Shown here one piece after another: positions 4,335-39,190 of a DNA stretch of 40,519 nt (position 1 is the stretch's first letter; the number at the start of each line of letters is the position of its first letter). The notes beneath the pieces are model-generated. The model saw only the letters and a program-made list of their open reading frames with translations. It made no database searches and was not told where the DNA came from. The DNA lies in IMG/VR virus record IMGVR_UViG_2872185964_000011; one strand, written 5' to 3'. Source of the stretch: a virus. Taxonomy: Duplodnaviria; Heunggongvirae; Uroviricota; Caudoviricetes. Made by a program: the position numbers and the translations under genes.

Positions 4335-4547
4335 TTATCCTTTATTGCGGCTTAAAATAATGGCCTCCAGATTTTTGCTATCCAGCACCACTACGGTAAA
4401 GCCCAGCGCGCGCAACCGTCCGTGTTCGCGCAACTGGTCAGGCCGTGGTGGCTTGCCGGGGGATACGAACTTAAAGGCAACCCCGCCAGCCTTTTTTACT
4501 TCAGCGACGAGGTGCTTTTCGATTAGGTTTTCACGTTCATAGGCCAT
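4335..4547 (-). CDS. VRR-NUC domain protein, C-terminal part only in frame
   Basis: 70-aa ORF; segment AFKFVSPGKPPRPDQLREHGRLRALGFTVVVLDSKNLEAI resembles the C-terminal half of VRR-NUC nucleases; expected N-terminal PD motif region is not in this frame. Confidence 0.5.
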   Translation of the reverse strand: MAYERENLIEKHLVAEVKKAGGVAFKFVSPGKPPRPDQLREHGRLRALGFTVVVLDSKNLEAIILSRNKG

Positions 4548-4740
4548 TAGCTTTCGCCTTCCTGCTTTTTGCGTTTCTTCATGCAGATAGCGCAGTTCTC
4601 AGGATGGTCATGCCATTCATCAATCCTGATACCTATGAACATCCATTTTCCGCATAGTGATATGGCTTCCCCGAATTAAAGAAATGTGCTTTTTTTGACA
4701 GAGCGGGGAACCCCCAACCCTTATTATCGATATTAGACAT
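4547..4740 (-). CDS. small ORF with strong Shine-Dalgarno, frame-interrupted; either the 5' part of the VRR-NUC gene or a separate small Cys/His protein
   Basis: AAGGAGGTG then ATG at 4740; 35 codons to a TAG, then the -1 frame continues (...IDEWHDHPENCAICMKKRKKQEGES) to a TAA overlapping the VRR-NUC ATG. Confidence 0.25.
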
Positions 4741-4867
4741 CGTCCACCTCCTTACGCTTTTCGCGCATGTTCTGCATCAGACAAAAATCAAACCGACGTT
4801 CGCTTTGGCCCAGACCTGCATCGCCCGGTCGTACCCGCCGGACTGTTCAAGGTGCAAAGCCTCCCGC

Positions 4868-4892
4868 ACAGTCCGGTAATAAAGCGGACTGT
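4868..4892. promoter_or_regulatory. perfect 8-bp inverted repeat ACAGTCCG-9 nt-CGGACTGT in the intergenic region downstream of the TIR-like gene
   Basis: read directly; no adjoining T-tract, so more likely a protein-binding site or RNA structure than a terminator. Confidence 0.3.
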
Positions 4893-4927
4893 CCCGGTAT
4901 TTAAATGACATAGGGTTTTTATTCCCA

Positions 4928-4951
4928 AATAAAAAACCCCGCGATGCAGGG
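4928..4951 (-). terminator. rho-independent terminator candidate following the TIR-like gene
   Basis: on the minus strand CCCUGC-AUC-GCGGGG hairpin (one G-U pair) followed by UUUUUUAUUU. Confidence 0.5.
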
Positions 4952-4974
4952 TTGTAATCAACAATAAGGGGTAA

Positions 4975-5736
4975 TTACGAGGAAGCGTTAGCTATTTGAG
5001 CTTGTGTAAATTCGAAACCAGAATTTTGTAACCGTTGCACTAGACGAGGAACTGTTTCACGTACATGGTCGTTGAAATTCAGATACAAAATCCCGTTAGC
5101 ATCAGAAGGCTGTTCTAGGTGCTGTTTCTGAAGGATTGCTACATTGCTGCGCCCTAAGGACGAAAGAAGCATACCCATCTCGAGTACAACGTTCTGTCTT
5201 GCGCGGGGTTGGATTTCTGCTTCACCGGCGCGCTTTGAGTATCCCATATCATCAGGTGTCAAAAGAACAATCCCGAAACGGGTAGCAGTTTGTCCTTGCC
5301 CAATTTCACGTTCAAGCTCTTCAATAATGGTGAGTCCAGTCCCTCCCGTATTCTGCAAAATGAAATGGTCTGGTAATCCAAGTTTATGAAGGATTAGCTC
5401 AAGTTGCTCCTTTGCAGTATGGTCATGGCCGTGAACAATGAATATCTTTTTGGGGAGCTCAGATGGCTGTTCTACGGCTAGTGGTGTTGCCGTGGGCGGC
5501 GTTCCTAAATGGGTCATTATTGCAGTTTCAACATTGGGACGTTCTTGAGGGTTACCTTGAAACTGAATGGTCCGGGTGGTGTAAAGGTTAACAATTACGC
5601 CATTCGTTAAACGATAGCAGTCACAAGTCTCACGCTGTTCGTGGGAAAAATTGGTGAACCCACACTCCCTCAAAAAGTCAGGAAAAGTTTCTCTCGGGTA
5701 TGGATAGGTGATCGGCATTTCAGTTAGTTCCTGCAT
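4975..5736 (-). CDS. TIR-like domain protein: C-terminal TIR-like (predicted nucleotide-binding, NADase-type) domain fused to an N-terminal ~95-aa domain of unknown function
   Basis: C-terminal half KKIFIVHGHDH...GIVLLTPDDMGY...RARQNVVLEMGMLLSSLGRSNVAILQK...PSDANGILYL matches from memory the bacterial TIR-like family consensus including the conserved Glu; own RBS and downstream terminator. Confidence 0.6.
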   Translation of the reverse strand: MQELTEMPITYPYPRETFPDFLRECGFTNFSHEQRETCDCYRLTNGVIVNLYTTRTIQFQGNPQERPNVETAIMTHLGTPPTATPLAVEQPSELPKKIFIVHGHDHTAKEQLELILHKLGLPDHFILQNTGGTGLTIIEELEREIGQGQTATRFGIVLLTPDDMGYSKRAGEAEIQPRARQNVVLEMGMLLSSLGRSNVAILQKQHLEQPSDANGILYLNFNDHVRETVPRLVQRLQNSGFEFTQAQIANASS

Positions 5737-5800
5737 AAGTATTGTTCCTTTAATTTACTCGAATTCAGCATGTCGCCATAGCTCGATAAGGTGAGTTATA

Positions 5801-7864
5801 TCAATCTTTTTTGTAGTGGTACGCCTCAAAACCGCCAGCGTTCAGTGGGATATCGGGCGCCCATTCGGGGTCAGTGGAGAGAAGCGCGGAAAGCGCTTTA
5901 TCGTTGAAATCTTCTGTGTCAGGTGCTTCGGTGATCACCTCGTCGTGTACCGTCAGCACAATGCTGTAACCGGCATCTTCGATAAGCGGCATGTTTCCGG
6001 CCAGAATGTCGCGGGCGGCCGCCTGGGTGATGTTCTCCACCAGCTTTCCGCCGTAGGTTTTGAGTCGTTGCCATTTACGCGAATAAGAGTTAACCCCCAT
6101 GTAGGTGATATTCCCTTTTTCGATAACCGGAGACGGGTAGCATACAGCGCGTCCGGATGGTAGCTGTATGCGCAGCCACGCGCCATCGCGGCGGATTTTA
6201 AGATAACCGCAATACAATGTTTTTTGCGGTGTGGCGATTGCAGTGCGGACGGTGCGCTCCAGTTCGTACCAGAAATCACAGGTCGCGGGATGCGCCCGGC
6301 GCCAGAGACGTTTAAGTGAGTCGCAGGCGATAAATACCCGTTCAGAAAGCCCGTAGGTTGACTTGCGTTTAACCGATTCGTCGTACCAGCTTTTCGCCTC
6401 GCGGATAACATCGCGGGGAATGTTTGGTAGTGCGGCGTTCGCCAGCTCGTCGAGATCGAGACCGTAAACCAGTGCAAAAGTGATGAAGGCCGACACACCA
6501 CCACCATAACCCAGACCGAGTTCCATGACTTTACCGATCTGACGCATGTGTTTATCAACATCATCTGGTGCAATATCGAAAGCTTTTGCATACGCCAGTT
6601 TATATAAGTCCGGACCCGTTCCGGCGTCGTACTCTCTGAATGCATTCAGTTTCCATTCTTCTCCCGCCAGCCATGCCAGCATACGGCCTTCAATGTTCGA
6701 CAAGTCACTTACCACCAGCTTTTTGCCTGTTGGCGCGATAATGCAGCCACGTAACGCTGAACTGGTTAGTTCCATGATATTGTCAAACAGCAGGTCTGCA
6801 CATCCGGCTTTCAGTGCTTCGATGCCTTCGTCTATTTGTTCCTGTTTTAGTGAAGGGCGGGGAAGGTTCTGGGGCTGGAATAGCCGTCCGGCCCAACGAC
6901 CGGTACGTGACGCCCCGCAGAACTGTAGCGTACCGCGTAAGCGCCCGTCGTGGCTTACGCCTTTCATCAGTGCCTTGTATTTACTGGTGCTGGTAGTACT
7001 GGCCTGCAGGCGGATAGCCAGCAGTTCTTTCACGGCAGATGGTAAATCGGGGTCGGCAATACGACGTTCCAGAGTACTGCGTTGCATGTCTGGTAGCTCC
7101 ACACCGTAGGATTCAACAATGTGCTTAATCAACGCGTCTCGTTGTGTGGCTGCCTGCACTTCGCCATCAGTCATTTCCTGTGTACGCTTTGCCAGGCGCT
7201 TTTGTTCCTGGTCTACCGCGTCGATCGCAGCGCGTGCGAGTTCCACGTCCATGCAGACGCCCCGGTCATTGATCTGCTGATCACGATGCCAGAGCGCCAG
7301 TTCTGTCCCCTGATAATTCCACTTCGGCAGACGTTTATAGACTTCGCGCATTGCCTCGATATCCAGTCCGGCGTAAGCAACAAAGCGCCGCCATTCTTCC
7401 GGGTGGGTTTTGCTGGTGGCCCGGCGCAGTTTGCTGTTTTTCGGGCGTGGCTTACAGAACAGCTGGATCAGCGCTTTACCTTCTTTGTCCTTCGCTTTGT
7501 CTTGCGGGACGCCTAGTACTTCGCAGAGTTCCCCCAGAGACCCCGGGAGACCGTGCGCCAGCGCCTGCACCATTGTGTCGCGCCAACGTTCGACTGGCGG
7601 TGCCAGGCGCGGCATTGCATAACGCAGAACGGTGCGGTCGAAGTGAGAGTTATGGAAATAAAGCTGGGTTTCAGGGTCTGCGATTGCTTCGTATAAGCCG
7701 TGTGGAATACCACCACCGGCAGTGATATCCCACACGTTTACTGGCCCGTCGTTGATAGCCCATGCGAAAAGCATCACTTCAACGCCTTCGGCATACGCAT
7801 GGGTACCGTTCGTAATAGGGATTTCGCAATAGGTTTCCAGGTCGCCCCATAGTATATTGGACAT
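5801..7864 (-). CDS. family A DNA polymerase with N-terminal 3'-5' exonuclease domain
   Basis: 687 aa; exo motif [11 protein letters not shown]; polymerase motif [16 protein letters not shown], motif [17 protein letters not shown], motif C VHDEVI. Confidence 0.85.
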
Positions 7865-29269: not shown

Positions 29270-31257
29270 ATGAACGCTGAAACTATTAAAGATTTCCTCG
29301 TCTCGCTTGGCTTCAGTGTGGATGATGCTGGAGCAAAAAAATTCGGTTCTGTCCTCGCCGGTACAACTGCAAATGTCATCAAAATGGGGTTGGCCGTTGA
29401 AGGAGCTGCACTGTCCGTGGTGGCCTTTACGGCTAAGATTGCCTCCGGCCTGGATAATCTTTACTGGGCGTCACAGCGCACTGGCGCGACAGTCCAGGGA
29501 ATTCAGTCTATTGGATATGCGGTTTCGCGGGTTGGCGGCAGCGTGGACGCTGCGCGATCTTCTCTGGAAAGCCTCTCCCGGTTTATTCGTAACAATCCCG
29601 GTGCAGAGGGATTTCTGAATCGCCTGGGGTACAGACACGGGATGCCAGCGGTAACATGCGTGACATGGCCGCTATTTTTACAGGTGTAGGCCAGAAGCTC
29701 AGCGGCATGCCGTATTACCGGGCTAACCAGTATGCGCAGATGCTGGGCATTGACGAAAATACCCTTATGGCGATGCGCCGGGGTGTGGGTGGTTTCTCCG
29801 GGCAGTACAGCGCAATGGCGAAAGCTATCGGCTTCAATGCTGAAGAGGCGGCCAGAAGCTCCAACAAATTTATGACCTCCCTGCGTGAGTTTAGCGCGAT
29901 GGCAGGCATGGCCCGTGACAAAATCGGCTCTAATCTTGCGGGTGGGCTTGCGGGTTCGCTGGACACCCTGCGCCGCCATATCCTGGACAACTTCCCGCGT
30001 ATCGAGCAGACCCTGACGAAAGCCATAAAAGGCATTCTGGCGCTCGGGGATATTATCGGGCGGCTGTTCTTCAGACTGATTGAAGGAACATCAAGCCTCA
30101 TCACCTGGTGGCAATCGCTGGATAAGCAAACGCGGGAGTTGATCTCGCTGTTTGGCGCACTGACGATTGCGCTGCGCATTCTGAACAGTACGTTCTGGAT
30201 GTCGCCGATTGGCCTCATTACCGCGCTGGCGGCGGGGATTGCCCTCCTGTGGGAGGACTATCAGACCTGGAAGGAAGGCGGCGACAGCCTGATTGACTGG
30301 GGCAAGTGGAAACCGGAGGTTGATGCCGCGCTGAAGATGGTTCGTGACCTTAAAACGACCGTTAACGACCTGGTGAAAGCGCTGGCGAAACTGCTCAATA
30401 TTGACCCCAAATCATGGTCCCTGAAGTGGGATTTCAGCAACTTCATCGACCAGATGGGCGAATTCAGCAAAATGCTGAACATGATCGCCGACCTGCTCAA
30501 CGCTATCAAAGATGGCCGCTGGGTTGATGCCGTCAGCATCGGCAAACAGATACTTAATCAGGGCAGCGAAAATCCGTCAGCGATGCCGATAGTTACAGAC
30601 AGCGCTAACAGTACTGCCGACTGGATTAAAGAGCACTGGGGATTCGATCCCCGCAGCGTGGGCCGGACGGTACGCGGCTGGTTTGGTGATGATGAGCCGG
30701 AACAATATGCACAGGCTACGAAACGAGGAGAACGGAATAACAATCCGGGAAACCTTAATTTTGCTGGTCAGGCAGGGGCTTCTCTTGAACGCCCGGGCGG
30801 GCGATTTGCCAGATTTGAAACTGCTTTTGATGGATTACGGGCTCTTGCTCGTCAGTTAATGCTGTACGCCGGACGGGGAATAAACAGTGTGGAGAAAATT
30901 ATCTCTACCTGGGCACCTGCGTCTGATAATAACAACACAACTGCGTATATCAGGGCTGTATCGCAACGACTGGGAGTGGATCCCCGGGCTGCCCTGAATA
31001 TGAGCGAGCCGCAAACCATGTCAGCATTGATGAGCAGCATTATCCAGCATGAAAATGGAAGAAATATCTATTCCCGAGAGCTGATTAATAAGGCTGCCGT
31101 GGCGGGAATTAGTGGCAAAATGACAGAGGTTAATCAGCAAAATACTTACCACATTTACGGTGGCGGAGATCCGCACGCTGTCGGTAATGAGGTTGCACGT
31201 CGGCAACAGTCTGCAAATGCTCAGGTCATGCGAAGTAATCAGGTGAGGGTGGGTTAG
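29270..31257 (+). CDS. tail tape measure protein, frame broken at G-run 29626-29629
   Basis: adding one G gives ...FLNRLGVQTRDASGNMRDMAAIFTG...; long helical protein. Confidence 0.75.
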
Positions 31258-32147: not shown

Positions 32148-33208
32148 ATGTCACAGAACTGGATGAGACATTTCGAGCTGCAGCTTGTGGACGGGAACGG
32201 TCAGGGAATTGAGCTAAGTGATTTCAAAGTCACCTTTACGATCGACTGGTTCAACATCAGCAGCGCGTCCCGGGTAGGGACTATCAAAATTTATAACCTT
32301 TCGGCAGATACTGTGAACCGAATTACCGGGCAGGAGTTTTCGAAAGTGCGTCTGATTGCGGGTTACGACGGTATCGCTCCGGAGGTGTCGGCAAGCGACG
32401 TCGGGACAGTGCGGGAAGTTGACGCGGCGAACGTGGGCCAGAGTAATGGTCGCAACTACGGACTGATTTTCAGCGGTGAAATTCGCTACTCGGTCACAGG
32501 AAAAGACAGTCCGGTTGATTCCTACGTCCTGATTCAGGCAGCAGATACTGATCTGGCTTTTGCCACCAGTATAACCTCACAGACGCTGGCTGCCGGTTAC
32601 ACGGTCGCTGATGTGAACCGTGCGCTGATGAAAGACTTCGAAGCCAAAGGTGTGACCGAAGGCCTGACGCCTGAAATGCCTGCTACTGTATTCCCCCGGG
32701 GCGGGTGCTCTTTGGCATGACGCGGCATCTAATGGATAACGTAGCCGAGCAATGTGGCGCAACATGGCAATTCGTGGACGGTCAGCGCCAGATGGTGGCG
32801 ACTAATGAATATGTTCACGAAGCGATTGTGCTCAACAGTGCTACCGGGCTTATTGGCATGCCGCAGCAGACCATCGGCAACGGCGTAAACGTCCGCGCTC
32901 TTATTAATCCGAACATCCGGGTTAACGGGCTCATTCAGCTGGATCAGGCTTCCGTCTATCGTACCGCGTTGTCGAACAACGATATTGCGATGGCTGGTGG
33001 TCAGATCACCGACCAGAACACGGACGGAAATATCACGCTCAGCGGCACCACATCGCAGCCTGCCAGCATCGCAACGGATGGCGTTTATATTGTGCGCGGG
33101 ATTATGTACAGTGGCGATACAAGGGGCCAGGCGTGGTACATGGATATGATGTGCGAAGCGCGTGGCGCGGCGGATCTGTATACGCAATCGGCTTTGCAAA
33201 GGGGATGA
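32148..33208 (+). CDS. baseplate hub / late-control-D-like tail protein, frame broken at 32693-32705
   Basis: two ORF-track pieces (190 and 167 aa) join across a C5/G4 run; position upstream of spike protein. Confidence 0.55.
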
Positions 33209-33211
33209 GCA

Positions 33212-33553
33212 ATGAGGGGTATTATTTTTCTGTTAGCTGTCTTTTCTGCGTGCAGCGCGTGGGCGGATGGCTTCACGGTTAAATGCGGTGGCTACACTAT
33301 GGTTGCAAACCAGGGCGAGTTATCGACAATCAACGGTGAAAAAGTTACCTCTCAAAAAATCACCGAACTGGGTACCAATGGTTTGAAAGTAGACATGGGG
33401 CTTATGCCTGCCAAAGACGGTAACAACTACGGCTTTGAATACATTCGTCGCCCTGGTACCGAAACGCGATTCCTGAATGTCCAACTGCTGCAGAACAGCA
33501 TGGATGCGCCGAAAATCATCGGTTCCTTTCCATGCAAAAAGATTGTTGATTAA
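33212..33553 (+). CDS. secreted small protein of unknown function (moron gene)
   Basis: 113 aa; signal peptide MRGIIFLLAVFSACSAWA; two Cys in the mature part; wedged between hub and spike genes. Confidence 0.55.
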   Translation: MRGIIFLLAVFSACSAWADGFTVKCGGYTMVANQGELSTINGEKVTSQKITELGTNGLKVDMGLMPAKDGNNYGFEYIRRPGTETRFLNVQLLQNSMDAPKIIGSFPCKKIVD

Positions 33554-33570
33554 TCACTCGTAATTATAAT
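33543..33570 (+). promoter_or_regulatory. sigma70-like promoter candidate for the 33607 gene
   Basis: TTGTTG, 16-bp spacer, TATAAT, about 37 nt upstream of the ATG. Confidence 0.4.
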
Positions 33571-33606
33571 GTGATACTTCTACTTTCACGATAAGGAATT
33601 TGTCGC

Positions 33607-33846
33607 ATGTTCGGATTTGATAAATTAATAACTCCAAAAATCATCAACGTTCTGTATGGCATCACAATGTTACTTCTGGTTGTTGCCGCCATTATAACGT
33701 TTGTTAATGGGAAGGCTGCTGGCGCTTTAGTGCTTTTGTTATGTGCTGTATTTTGCCGAATATTCTTTGAGTGCATCATGGTTTCATTTAAAAACAATGA
33801 GTATCTTCGCCGAATAGCTGAAGCGTTAGAAGCAAACAAGCAGTAA
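33607..33846 (+). CDS. small two-helix membrane protein of unknown function (moron gene)
   Basis: 79 aa with two hydrophobic helices; AAGGAA RBS; followed by a strong terminator. Confidence 0.55.
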   Translation: MFGFDKLITPKIINVLYGITMLLLVVAAIITFVNGKAAGALVLLLCAVFCRIFFECIMVSFKNNEYLRRIAEALEANKQ

Positions 33847-33863
33847 TGAAACTTCAATAATGA

Positions 33864-33888
33864 ACCCGCCACCCGGCGGGTTTTTTGC
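33864..33888 (+). terminator. rho-independent terminator
   Basis: CCCGCC-accc-GGCGGG hairpin followed by TTTTTT. Confidence 0.7.
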
Positions 33889-33905
33889 TTTCTGGAGCCT
33901 ACTAA

Positions 33906-34657
33906 ATGGCAGTATCTGACCAGACCCGCAGCGGCGACCTTGCCGAAACATTCAAATCTGAACGGGAAACAACAAAGAACCAGATCCGTGTCGCCTTGCC
34001 TGGCATTGTTCAGTCATTCGATCCCGACGCGGTGACGGCGGTTGTGCAGCCAGCTATCCGTTCGGTTGAAAAGGATAACGACGGTAACCGCATTACCAAA
34101 AATTACCCGTTGCTGGTGGATGTGCCAGTGGTATTTCCGCGCGGCGGAGGCTGTACGTTGACTTTTCCGGTTAAAGCCGGGGATGAGTGTCTTGTCGTTT
34201 TTGCCGATCGTTGTATTGATTTCTGGTGGCAGAGCGGTGGGATACAGGAGCCGGTCGATGACAGAATGCATGATTTATCGGATGCGTTTTGTATTGTCGG
34301 TCCCCAGTCGCAGGCGAGGAAGATTAGCGGTATTAATACCAGTGCCACACAGTTGCGTAGTGACGACGGCAGCACCTATTTTGAGCTTAATCCTGATACC
34401 CGGAAAATTAAAATTGTCGTCCCGGGTGGTCTTGATGTGGTTGCCCCTCTGGCTGATTTTTCTGAGAAAGTAACCATTCATGGCCTGTTAACCTGGATGG
34501 GGGCATGGTGGGGTCTGTTGTTTCTGGTGTGGCTTCAAAAATCACTGGTGCTGTTGAGTTCTTGGGGAGCGTTAAGGCTAACGGCAAGCCAATCGATGAT
34601 ACGCACACTCATGGCGGTGTTCAGCGCGGTGGAAGCAATACCGATGGGGTAAACTGA
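33906..34657 (+). CDS. baseplate spike protein (gpV / Mu gp45-like), frame broken near 34481-34505
   Basis: -1 frame gives C-terminus ...GSVVSGVASKITGAVEFLGSVKANGKPIDDTHTHGGVQRGGSNTDGVN ending at a TGA overlapping the next ATG. Confidence 0.6.
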
Positions 34658-38553: not shown

Positions 38554-38563
38554 TTAAACGGAA

Positions 38564-39109
38564 TTATGTGTGAGATGAGTTATAAATAATTTCAGAGTGA
38601 AATTTAGTAATGAATGTGGAGTCATCAGGAATGTCATGCAGTACCAATGCATGAGCTCCTATTTTTACATTATTCCCTATATGCACTTTGCCACCAAGGA
38701 TGGTGGCGTTACAGCCAATGGTTACATTATTTCCTATGACAATATCCATATCATTAAATTCACCGCGAAGTCCAATAGTTACCCCTGGCTTAATTGAACA
38801 ATTTTCACCTATTGTAACTTTGTGACCGATAACAACGCCATTGAGATAAGATATGTCGAACCCTTTACCAATATTTACAGTTAAGGGAACGGTTACATTG
38901 TATTTATCAAGAATGAAGCGTTCTATTTTTCCTGCAATCTTTCGCCGGTATCCTCCTTTATCAAAAAGATATTTTGCTACGCGCCACCAAAATAAATAAC
39001 GTAATCTTCTGTGTTTTATTGCGCGAACAATTGCTTTTCGCCAGGAGAAAGGGCGTTTATAACCTATTACTTCATAGTGTATACAGTTTTTAAGTTCACT
39101 AATATTCAT
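38564..39109 (-). CDS. hexapeptide-repeat acetyltransferase (serine-acetyltransferase-like left-handed beta-helix fold); cargo gene
   Basis: 181 aa with tandem hexapeptide repeats (VIGHKVTIGENCSIKPGVTIG...IGNNVTIGCNATILGGKVHIGNNVKIGAHALVL); AT-rich; antisense to tail genes. Confidence 0.7.
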   Translation of the reverse strand: MNISELKNCIHYEVIGYKRPFSWRKAIVRAIKHRRLRYLFWWRVAKYLFDKGGYRRKIAGKIERFILDKYNVTVPLTVNIGKGFDISYLNGVVIGHKVTIGENCSIKPGVTIGLRGEFNDMDIVIGNNVTIGCNATILGGKVHIGNNVKIGAHALVLHDIPDDSTFITKFHSEIIYNSSHT

Positions 39110-39190
39110 ATGTCTATTATTCAGTAAAGATAATTCTGTAACTTATTATTATATTAAGTTTAATGAGATTTTTCTACAGTTTACTGTCTT

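Follow-up and report, generated by a model that had tools for sequence, protein, structure and literature searches.

Two small open reading frames (ORFs) lie between the baseplate hub gene and the membrane-puncturing spike gene of an E. coli prophage tail operon, within the 40,519 nt stretch of viral DNA that we analyzed (hereafter the window). The initial annotation read them as a two-gene moron, a secreted protein plus a small membrane protein inserted together with their own promoter and terminator. Are these genes one unit, and what might their products do at this position? Comparison with related loci shows that the junction consists of a conserved exported-protein gene followed by a swappable cargo slot. 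The full explanation set out below, which covers this layout, the exchange and expression of the cargo and the roles of the two proteins, has in our estimate a probability of about 0.6.

The hub-spike junction and its backbone genes

The tail module is of the contractile, SEN34-like (Brunovirus-type) kind. Both ORFs were confirmed on the plus strand, one encoding 113 aa (p113; 33212-33553) and the other 79 aa (p79; 33607-33846), and their location between the hub and spike genes was borne out by Pfam and by the annotation of SEN34. The hub gene on the left flank (32148-33208, plus strand) weakly matches the Pfam family E217_GP41 and corresponds to the gene annotated as 'baseplate hub' in SEN34/YP3, and the spike gene on the right flank (33906-34652, plus strand) encodes the Pfam spike N-terminal domain (E 1.7e-44). 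In the window, loss of one nucleotide from a homopolymer near 32702 breaks the hub gene into two ORFs (32148-32720 and 32705-33208); 79 of the 83 relatives have it in one piece. When aligned to E. coli RM8082, the spike gene also lacks 1 nt near 34499; its C-terminal apex is thereby out of frame, and the true C-terminus runs on in the ORF at 34505-34657. With another at 29626, the window contains three apparent homopolymer frameshifts. We discounted an antisense ORF of 102 aa (33564-33872) as spurious, since it is the ORF on the plus strand that has the Pfam match and the conserved homologues, and an Rfam search returned only a sub-threshold snoRNA match, by chance.

Upstream, phmmer searches against PDB matched the C-terminus of the tape-measure protein to Gp29 (9vvp_L, E 2e-20) and to an endolysin (7q47_A, E 3.7e-13). 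The muramidase-like domain extends from about 30720 to 31130 on the plus strand, as judged from the matched residues, and corresponds to about residues 355-490 of the 533-aa ORF; the tail thus bears a peptidoglycan hydrolase. The lysis cassette of the prophage is complete, with a holin, a glycoside hydrolase and DUF2570.

p113 is a conserved exported protein

We compared the junction among 83 related loci with a hub C-terminus of at least 93% identity. The p113 family (phrog_3443) follows the hub gene in 80 of them, and p79 is found in only 19. Syntenic homologues of p113 with 27-31% identity also occur in a Klebsiella phage and an Erwinia prophage. The gene starts 4 nt past the hub stop codon, its GC content is 47%, and a promoter scan found no promoter-like site upstream of it. 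The idea that p113 is a moron gene does not survive this comparison, as the gene is neither sporadic in its presence nor deviant in composition, and has neither a promoter nor a terminator of its own. The initial annotation had itself named conservation among related tail modules as a result that would speak against a moron, and for p113 this is what we observed.

The N-terminus of p113 consists of a hydrophobic helix followed by an A-x-A site, an arrangement kept across 40 homologues though the residues vary, and is assigned as a signal peptide of residues 1-18, leaving a mature protein of ~95 aa. The signal peptide and two cysteines pointed out initially both held up: C25 and C108 of the mature protein are invariant. 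There is a third cysteine, C14, which is inside the signal peptide and is not conserved. A lipoprotein with FSAC as its lipobox was rejected on the grounds that the A-x-A site is conserved and C14 is not. The loop D-G-N-N-Y is also invariant, and the mature protein is predicted to fold into a small all-beta barrel of eight strands. Foldseek searches of this fold against PDB and BFVD gave nothing significant, nor did a profile search match PDB sequences or a Pfam search with E up to 0.1 match any family, MliC included. NCBIfam searches returned sub-threshold noise only, and neither p113 nor p79 matched PADLOC-DB 2.0 at E up to 0.1.

The ratio dN/dS of p113 is ~0.12 with a saturated dS of ~1, values that point to purifying selection and to old alleles rather than fast evolution; no sign of positive selection was seen. 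In relatives devoid of p113, the position next to the hub gene carries another exported protein, in one case with a signal peptide and in one a lipoprotein. On a deeper timescale, p113 is an add-on: the modules of Hafnia and Pam3, which are built the same way, have no p113 gene, so the tail does not need it. Pam3 has no gene at all between hub and spike, and gp42 of E217, which is encoded between the hub and spike genes of that phage, was rejected as an analogue of p113, since it is unrelated and without a signal peptide. Several features argue against virion structural proteins, namely the cleavable signal peptide of p113, the membrane hairpin of p79, the absence of both from Pam3 and that of p113 from Hafnia. 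As far as sequence comparison can tell, p113 is a fixed, exported and probably non-structural accessory gene. Its product would be periplasmic and made late together with the tail proteins, without becoming part of the virion. It is an oddity that a conserved exported protein is encoded amid genes for cytoplasmic tail assembly.

p79 belongs to an exchangeable cassette

p79 is a member of the Pfam family DUF4282 (PF14110; E 1.2e-10, 42.2 bits against a gathering cut-off of 27), its residues 2-71 aligning to positions 2-85 of the 86 in the profile, and it corresponds to phrog_12129. The gene is preceded by the ribosome-binding site (RBS) AAGGAA at 33594-33599. An AF2 model with a mean pLDDT of 86.6 consists of a helical hairpin (residues 10-33 and 37-78), in agreement with the two-helix membrane protein originally proposed. 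Among 40 sequences, F4, I8, T9, P10, Y17, R51 and E55 are invariant, as are F61, K62, E65, Y66, L67, R69 and I70 within the stretch F61-I70 (FKNNEYLRRI). p79 would reside in the inner membrane with both ends, the conserved N-terminus and the C-terminal tail, in the cytoplasm. In this orientation, the conserved residues face the cytoplasm or lie inside the second helix, and the periplasmic loop is short and variable. This distribution differs from what would at first be expected of a protein that meets an incoming tail.

The cassette containing p79 spans ~320 nt on the plus strand (33541-33861), from the last three codons of p113 (IVD) to just before a hairpin, and has a GC content of 36% compared with 54% in the hub gene and 52% in the spike gene. 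We found it in 84 of 5,426 complete E. coli genomes, each time at ≥99% identity; the junction itself is present in 333. About 6% of complete E. coli genomes, among them those of O145, O111 and O55 strains, contain this tail type. The p113 C-terminus ending in KKIVD accompanies p79 in 19 of 19 loci, and one locus only has KKIVD without p79. The cassette is 100% identical even beside divergent p113 alleles.

The loci without p79 hold different cargo or none. Altogether, the 83 loci show 18 junction layouts, with at least 15 alternative cargo sets besides p79 and one locus (L084; junction of 408 nt) with p113 only. The slot begins just past the invariant FPCKK codons of p113 and ends at the conserved hairpin. 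Its other contents include a YafO-family toxin in a YafO-like pair (E 4e-17), weak matches to HEPN and PycTM, and DUF2335. Some cargoes are unannotated two-gene sets, one encoding 243 or 256 aa together with 142 aa and another 192 aa together with the YafO-like protein. Among the cargo sets, at least 16 in all, there are almost no matches to known defence models. The conserved edges on either side may allow cassettes to be swapped by homologous recombination. The junction is thus laid out in three parts, p113 as a fixed accessory gene read on from the hub gene, a recombinational cargo slot and the spike gene, and we found no description of this hotspot in the literature searched.

These results divide the moron described initially. 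p79 is the sole moron at the junction, given its presence in 19 of 83 near-identical tail modules, its low GC content, the promoter-like element within its cassette and the hairpin 3' of it, but p113 is none. Judged by the criteria for morons (Juhala/Hendrix), p79 has the sporadic presence and the deviant composition and lacks a terminator of its own. Nor can the two genes be one inserted unit, as p113 is fixed, p79 is swappable and the terminator is common to all cargo.

The terminator belongs to the backbone

An intrinsic terminator is located at 33862-33889 on the plus strand, where a hairpin of nine pairs, six of them G-C (33862-33883), is followed by a T6 run and then by the spike RBS GGAG. 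The fold has a free energy of -16.4 kcal/mol (z -3.5), a stability that 0 of 200 shuffled sequences reached. The hairpin is kept in 79 of the 83 loci, with every cargo type and also in the locus with p113 only, and its variation is mostly in the loop, with few stem variants. A strong terminator was therefore rightly placed here by the initial annotation but wrongly ascribed to the gene pair: 79 of 83 relatives have it irrespective of the upstream cargo, which makes it a backbone element and the right edge of the variable slot. It serves the p79 unit in function without being carried by the cassette.

The promoter-like element TTGTTG-16-TATAAT (33543-33570, plus strand) is inside the cassette, its -35 hexamer overlapping the last codons of p113. 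The motif exists as reported, but is not significant by itself. The -10 hexamer is perfect and the -35 hexamer has 3/6 bases; TTG-N19-TATAAT occurs once in the window, and 29 of 100 shuffled sequences contain at least one match. A stricter promoter scan did not report the element since its -35 matches only 3/6. Similar sites lie 5' of DUF4282 genes in Klebsiella (identified by eye) and Pantoea, and the motif is not conserved upstream of the p79 orthologue of Pectobacterium.

We propose that p79 would be transcribed from its own promoter in the lysogen and that the backbone hairpin would halt this transcript ahead of the spike gene. Late transcription in the lytic phase would be antiterminated and pass through the hairpin. 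The regulation of SEN34 is lambda-like (PMC5261728); the same paper mentions neither virion proteomics nor morons.

p113 and p79 assort independently

If p113 and p79 formed a functional pair, either a toxin with its immunity protein, as suggested at first, or a two-part exclusion system like Sp and Imm of T4, they should travel together. They are adjacent and both targeted to the envelope, and the order of hub, a 112 aa protein, DUF4282 and spike is also found in Pectobacterium and Erwinia. However, 100% identical p79 sits beside p113 alleles sharing just 63% identity with that of the window (loci L067 and L081) as well as beside the identical allele. Relatives of p79 are found in Hafnia, where no p113 gene accompanies them, and next to tape-measure genes elsewhere, p113 occurs alone or with at least 15 other cargo sets, and neither protein is homologous to Imm or Sp. 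The independent assortment of the two genes argues against a toxin/immunity pair, and we regard a pair of any kind as highly improbable.

DUF4282 genes recur in tail modules

We next consider where the DUF4282 family is found elsewhere. Pectobacterium, Hafnia and Erwinia have a gene of this family at the hub-spike junction. In a Salmonella-type myovirus module found in seven further species, in phage GF-2 and in a Klebsiella siphovirus prophage, such a gene comes directly 3' of the one for the tape measure. In GF-2 and the Salmonella-type module, it is 0-10 nt from the tape-measure stop codon. DUF4282 thus recurs in three other positions of the tail module, near the tape-measure, hub and spike genes. 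The Pantoea gene comes right after a holin-lysozyme-Rz cassette, and hairpins are found 3' of both the Klebsiella and Pantoea genes.

In 72 of the 80 species-representative DUF4282 loci, no match to a small panel of phage proteins was obtained. The phage fraction (8/80) is a lower bound because those 72 loci were judged by this small panel only. The chromosomal neighbors include accA-yaeR in Escherichia species and LysR-type regulators in Salmonella and Franconibacter; several loci are plainly chromosomal, which implies that the family has a role unrelated to phages. DUF4282 was not mentioned in the literature searched, and the phage-borne subgroup associated with tail modules appears, as far as we found, to be previously undescribed. 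That tail modules have repeatedly taken up DUF4282 genes next to those for tape measure, hub and spike gives the family a concrete lead: might it block DNA entry? It may also be that tape-measure-adjacent junctions simply tolerate insertions.

Possible functions of p79 and p113

By analogy with known exclusion proteins, p79 is a reasonable guess for a superinfection exclusion protein. Its most likely role would be to block the genome entry of incoming phages at the step of the membrane channel, in the manner of HK97 gp15 and T4 Imm, which act on entry that depends on the tape measure, although we give this specific role somewhat less than an even chance. p79 could instead be a factor of lysogenic conversion or host physiology, with the membrane or stress role of chromosomal DUF4282 proteins and no direct action on phages. 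The 72 of 80 homologue loci without a match to the phage panel, the accA-yaeR and LysR-type neighbors and the cytoplasmic position of the conserved motifs fit this alternative. We consider it possible but on balance unlikely, as tail modules have captured DUF4282 repeatedly, in three or more positions near the tape-measure, hub and spike genes, and the slot also holds cargo of the kinds seen in conflict systems, toxin-antitoxin-like or HEPN-like. Moreover, HK97 gp15 has chromosomal YebO relatives and yet excludes phages (PMC3594210). The effect of p79 might also be on the membrane itself, as a toxin of the holin-like or abortive-infection kind or by modulating when lysis occurs. Class II holins are small proteins that have two helices in the membrane and end in a charged C-terminal tail. 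p79 shares all of these features, R51 and E55 are invariant inside its second helix, and the Pantoea gene is just 3' of a lysis cassette. But the prophage already owns a full lysis cassette, a pore former made constitutively would harm the lysogen, and the cassette includes no partner antitoxin and has no PADLOC match, so that a membrane-disrupting effector is quite improbable. Delivery in the virion as a pore or pilot protein, which would build the DNA channel together with the tape-measure protein, is suggested by the gene lying 0-10 nt from the tape-measure stop codon in GF-2 and the Salmonella-type module. This is very hard to reconcile with the three quarters of near-identical E. coli tail modules that lack p79 and contain unrelated cargo instead, with the low GC content and the promoter-like and hairpin elements that flank p79, and with its chromosomal homologues.

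As for p113, our leading guess is that it acts in the periplasm on incoming or released phage tails. One specific form of this guess is an inhibitor of the tape-measure muramidase of superinfecting or released phages, similar to Spackle or to PliC/MliC. We detected no co-variation of p113 with the tape-measure muramidase domain (rho 0.03); the variation of p113 tracks that of the adjacent hub C-terminus only, as linkage would predict. We consider such an inhibitor unlikely. Equally improbable in our view is that the whole junction would be a dedicated 'entry-conflict' locus, with p113 and the slot both directed against incoming tails. p113 would then neutralize the tail tip or its muramidase in the periplasm, and DUF4282 would represent a new and widespread class of inner-membrane exclusion proteins against formation of the tape-measure-dependent channel, repeatedly captured from a chromosomal family. 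If this were true, the other ~15 cargo sets, mostly unannotated, would be a reservoir of new defence genes. Apart from any such role, the slot is a practical hunting ground for new genes of phage conflict, since it is precisely bounded and its cargo is almost entirely without matches to defence models.

Comparison with known systems

The closest counterpart of p79 in layout is gene 15 of HK97. HK97 gp15 is an inner-membrane exclusion protein (PMC3594210), and the moron that encodes it ends in a terminator directly ahead of the tape-measure gene. Like p79, gp15 is a small inner-membrane protein whose gene is inserted in a tail operon, and a hairpin terminator (ACCCGC...GCGGGTTTTTTTT) 3' of the gene is followed by the RBS of the next tail gene. 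gp15 is related to YebO, has uncharacterized relatives encoded on chromosomes and keeps phages out at the step of DNA entry (PMC3594210). The two proteins differ in length (62 aa in HK97 and 79 aa here) and have no sequence relationship (hhalign probability 0.15%). The insertion site is also different, between the chaperone and tape-measure genes in HK97 and between hub and spike here, where the terminator is common to many cargoes.

T4 Imm, a membrane protein of 83 aa, stops secondary infection by binding the tape-measure protein (bioRxiv 10.64898/2026.03.06.709160). Imm and Sp, the latter annotated as periplasmic, resemble p79 and p113 in size and cell compartment. However, hhalign indicated no homology, with a probability of 0.08% for p79 and Imm and of 5.9% for p113 and Sp, the latter confined to the signal peptide, and the T4 imm and sp genes are unlinked and outside the tail genes, unlike the p113/p79 locus. 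T4 Sp is helical; p113, in contrast, is predicted to be all-beta. In its predicted structure, p113 is closer to PliC, MliC and PhiA, which are likewise exported proteins of ~90-100 aa that form an antiparallel barrel of eight strands with cysteines near the first and last strands. The SGxxY motif of PliC/MliC is absent from p113, which has D-G-N-N-Y instead, and the likeness is that of generic small barrels.

As a whole, the hub-spike slot resembles the Z/fun and old/tin hotspots of P2 and those of P4, where near-identical phages exchange many alternative accessory or defence cargoes within a fixed pair of conserved flanks. One P2 hotspot is likewise beside baseplate and tail genes (bioRxiv 10.1101/2024.10.15.618418). 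Unlike these hotspots, the slot described here is at the hub-spike site of a SEN34-like myovirus tail on a lambdoid or Rac-like backbone, is flanked by an exported-protein gene on the left and a terminator on the right, and contains cargo almost entirely without defence matches. Morons and cargo hotspots of temperate phages are well known; the finding is unsurprising in kind, and its members are new.

Tail module of the prophage

The window carries an E. coli prophage whose early genes are Rac/lambda-like and whose contractile-tail module is of the SEN34 (Brunovirus) type. It shares 98-99% identity with the E. coli RM8082 prophage over most of the structural region and is 100% identical to it over 33100-34000. 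The gene at 32148..33208 (+), a weak match to Pfam E217_GP41, is the baseplate hub gene by SEN34 and YP3 annotation, and that at 33906..34652 (+) encodes a membrane-puncturing spike (N-terminal domain, E 1.7e-44). Between them lie the two ORFs placed there by the initial annotation, 33212-33553 (+; 113 aa, p113) and 33607-33846 (+; 79 aa, p79).

Compared with intact relatives, 1-nt deletions in G or C homopolymers cause frameshifts in the tape-measure (~29626), hub (~32702) and spike (~34499) genes, the last of which puts the spike apex with its HTH motif out of frame, to continue in ORF 34505-34657. The hub frameshift also occurs in RM8082, while the hub is intact in 79/83 relatives. These are either marks of a decaying prophage in which p113 and p79 are still intact or homopolymer sequencing errors. 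At the prophage end, just beyond the tail-fibre assembly gene, the RM8082 annotation places a serine acetyltransferase gene (L005, 1923-2468), which alignment transfers to ~38560-39110 in the window; the tail-fibre gene there is annotated as truncated in RM8082. This acetyltransferase could represent a further, separate conversion gene.

Three separate elements at the hub-spike junction

The hub-spike junction was compared across 80 viral contigs with hub C-termini 93-99% identical to that of the window, to which four annotated records and the window were added; both flanks could be located, and the junction dissected, in 83 loci. The junction spans 408 to 1,861 nt and shows 18 layouts. A p113-family gene lies directly 3′ of the hub gene in 80/83 loci. 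In the other three, a different exported protein unrelated to p113 takes this first position, namely a 153-aa signal-peptide protein (L048 and L078, 4510-4971) or a 241-aa lipoprotein (L083, 4510-5235); selection seems to keep some exported protein right after the hub. p79 is sporadic, occurring in 19/83 loci, and is 98.7-100% identical in every case, even in L067 and L081, where p113 is only ~63% identical to the window allele. Among 5,426 complete E. coli genomes, the junction was found in 333 and the p79 cassette in 84.

In 19/19 loci with p79, the p113 gene ends in the codons IVD and a stop, an ending seen in only one locus that lacks p79. The exchangeable unit therefore begins immediately past the invariant FPCKK codons and stops just short of the terminator hairpin, covering ~320 nt at 36% GC between genes of 52-54% GC. 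Other loci carry other cargo, including a 142-aa protein weakly matching HEPN together with one of 243 or 256 aa, a YafO-family toxin (E 4e-17) together with a protein of 192 aa, a membrane protein weakly matching PycTM, a DUF2335 membrane protein and cysteine-rich small proteins; in L084 the second position is empty. At least 15 other gene sets, nearly all unannotated, occupy this slot in relatives (L007, L009, L028, L034, L004, L066, L074 and others; ~4500-6200 in each). The recurrent two-gene modules, which also include a 207-aa and 125-aa pair, are candidate new defence or toxin-antitoxin systems. Cassettes are probably swapped by homologous recombination through the p113 3′ end on one side and the hairpin-spike flank on the other.

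As had been proposed, a strong hairpin (-16.4 kcal/mol, z -3.5) with a T6 run behind it lies at 33862-33883, but it does not belong to the gene pair: together with the spike ribosome-binding site it is conserved in 79/83 loci regardless of the upstream content, with variation mostly in the loop. The proposed promoter motif, TTGTTG-16-TATAAT at 33543-33570, is present but not significant alone, since 29/100 shuffles of the window contain at least one such match. Given these distributions and the cassette edges, the 'pair' is three separate things, a fixed gene (p113), a one-gene cassette (p79) and a backbone terminator. The earlier observation was largely right, and its interpretation as a moron holds for one gene of the two; a single inserted unit is contradicted by near-identical p79 beside divergent p113 alleles and by other cargo elsewhere. 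Morons in phage cargo hotspots are well known (bioRxiv 10.1101/2024.10.15.618418), while the hub-spike site, DUF4282 cargo (the family of p79) and the p113 family are uncharacterised.

In the lysogen, p79 would be transcribed from its own promoter up to the backbone hairpin, and in the late phase antiterminated transcription would pass through it; SEN34 regulation is lambda-like (PMC5261728). Closely similar hairpins (ACCCGC-loop-GCGGG and a T-run) close an inserted small membrane gene in three tail operons that are unrelated to one another, those of a Klebsiella siphovirus prophage (L089, 6245-6270), HK97 at gene 15 (L184, 1599-1623) and the window (33862-33889), and in each the next tail gene's ribosome-binding site follows directly.

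p113 is a conserved secreted protein

Across 40 p113 homologues the N-terminus is hydrophobic and ends in A-x-A; its individual residues differ but its character persists. Because C14 is not conserved, p113 is secreted and not a lipoprotein; C25 and C108 are invariant, and so is a D-G-N-N-Y loop. The family is small, with only 34 cluster representatives matching at E <=0.001 among 1.84 billion proteins, one of them a 292-aa lipoprotein with the p113 domain C-terminal. Homologues 27-31% identical lie at the equivalent place in an Erwinia prophage and in Klebsiella phage ST340-VIM1phi10.1. Neither phage Pam3 nor a Hafnia module sharing this architecture has the gene. The E217 gene between hub and spike is unrelated and lacks a signal peptide. 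Among the proteins of the module, p113 diverges most (mean pairwise distance 0.175 versus 0.016-0.09 for its neighbours), with dN/dS ~0.12 and dS near 1; its alleles are old, evolve under purifying selection and have been reshuffled by recombination.

As p113 starts 4 nt past the hub stop and a motif scan of the window found no promoter-like site ahead of it, we infer late expression alongside the tail genes. Because virions are assembled in the cytoplasm, an exported p113 is very unlikely to form part of them. The tape-measure protein (ORF 29656-31257) ends in a muramidase-like domain (~30720-31130) with an RNNNPGN motif, not recognized by Pfam and homologous to PDB 9vvp Gp29 (E 2e-20) and endolysin 7q47 (E 3.7e-13), which makes a Spackle-like inhibitor of this domain conceivable. 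We consider this improbable, as p113 divergence is uncoupled from that of the muramidase domain (rho 0.03), p113 has no MliC profile match, and PhiA itself did not inhibit its own target in vitro (PMC8334348).

p79 is a DUF4282 membrane protein

p79 belongs to DUF4282 (42.2 bits, cut-off 27), and its confidently predicted helical hairpin agrees with the initial description as a two-helix membrane protein. Lys and Arg are concentrated at the N-terminus and over the C-terminal tail, and by the positive-inside rule both termini are probably cytoplasmic. Invariant positions fall near the N-terminus (F4, I8, T9, P10 and Y17), within helix 2 (R51 and E55) and over most of the FKNNEYLRRI stretch that follows; the periplasmic turn and most helix residues vary. 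An antisense ORF (33564-33872, -; 102 aa) overlapping p79 completely matches no family and most plausibly just reflects the AT-rich composition of the cassette.

Relatives 45-70% identical to p79 recur in phage tail modules. They lie between hub and spike in Pectobacterium, Hafnia (without p113) and Erwinia, directly 3′ of the tape-measure gene in a Salmonella-type myovirus module (seven further species), in phage GF-2 and, followed by an ACCCGC...GCGGGTTTTTT hairpin, in the Klebsiella siphovirus prophage, and 3′ of the lysis cassette in Pantoea. An 84-aa chromosomal paralogue ~38% identical to p79 occurs in Escherichia species and some E. coli (L143, L159, L140, L141, L145), in L143 and L159 (6001-6240) between accA and yaeR, outside any prophage.

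We favor, at roughly 35-40%, a role for p79 at the inner membrane, where it would block entry of an incoming genome. DUF4282 is mostly chromosomal, 72/80 species-representative loci having no match to a small panel of phage proteins and some having clearly housekeeping surroundings, and a role in host physiology is unlikely though worth considering. Membrane damage or lysis timing is less probable still. We give little credence to p79 as a virion pilot, and equally little to p113 and p79, which occur independently, as a toxin/immunity or otherwise obligate pair.

The proposed entry block has parallels in known exclusion proteins, although direct sequence comparison found p79 homologous to neither HK97 gp15 nor T4 Imm. 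T4 Imm, a membrane protein similar in size to p79, binds the tape-measure protein (bioRxiv 10.64898/2026.03.06.709160). HK97 gp15 is a small inner-membrane moron product that excludes phages at DNA entry and has chromosomal YebO relatives (PMC3594210), as p79 has in DUF4282; its gene adjoins the tape-measure gene, a terminator lies 3′ of it, and p79 relatives likewise lie beside tape-measure genes.
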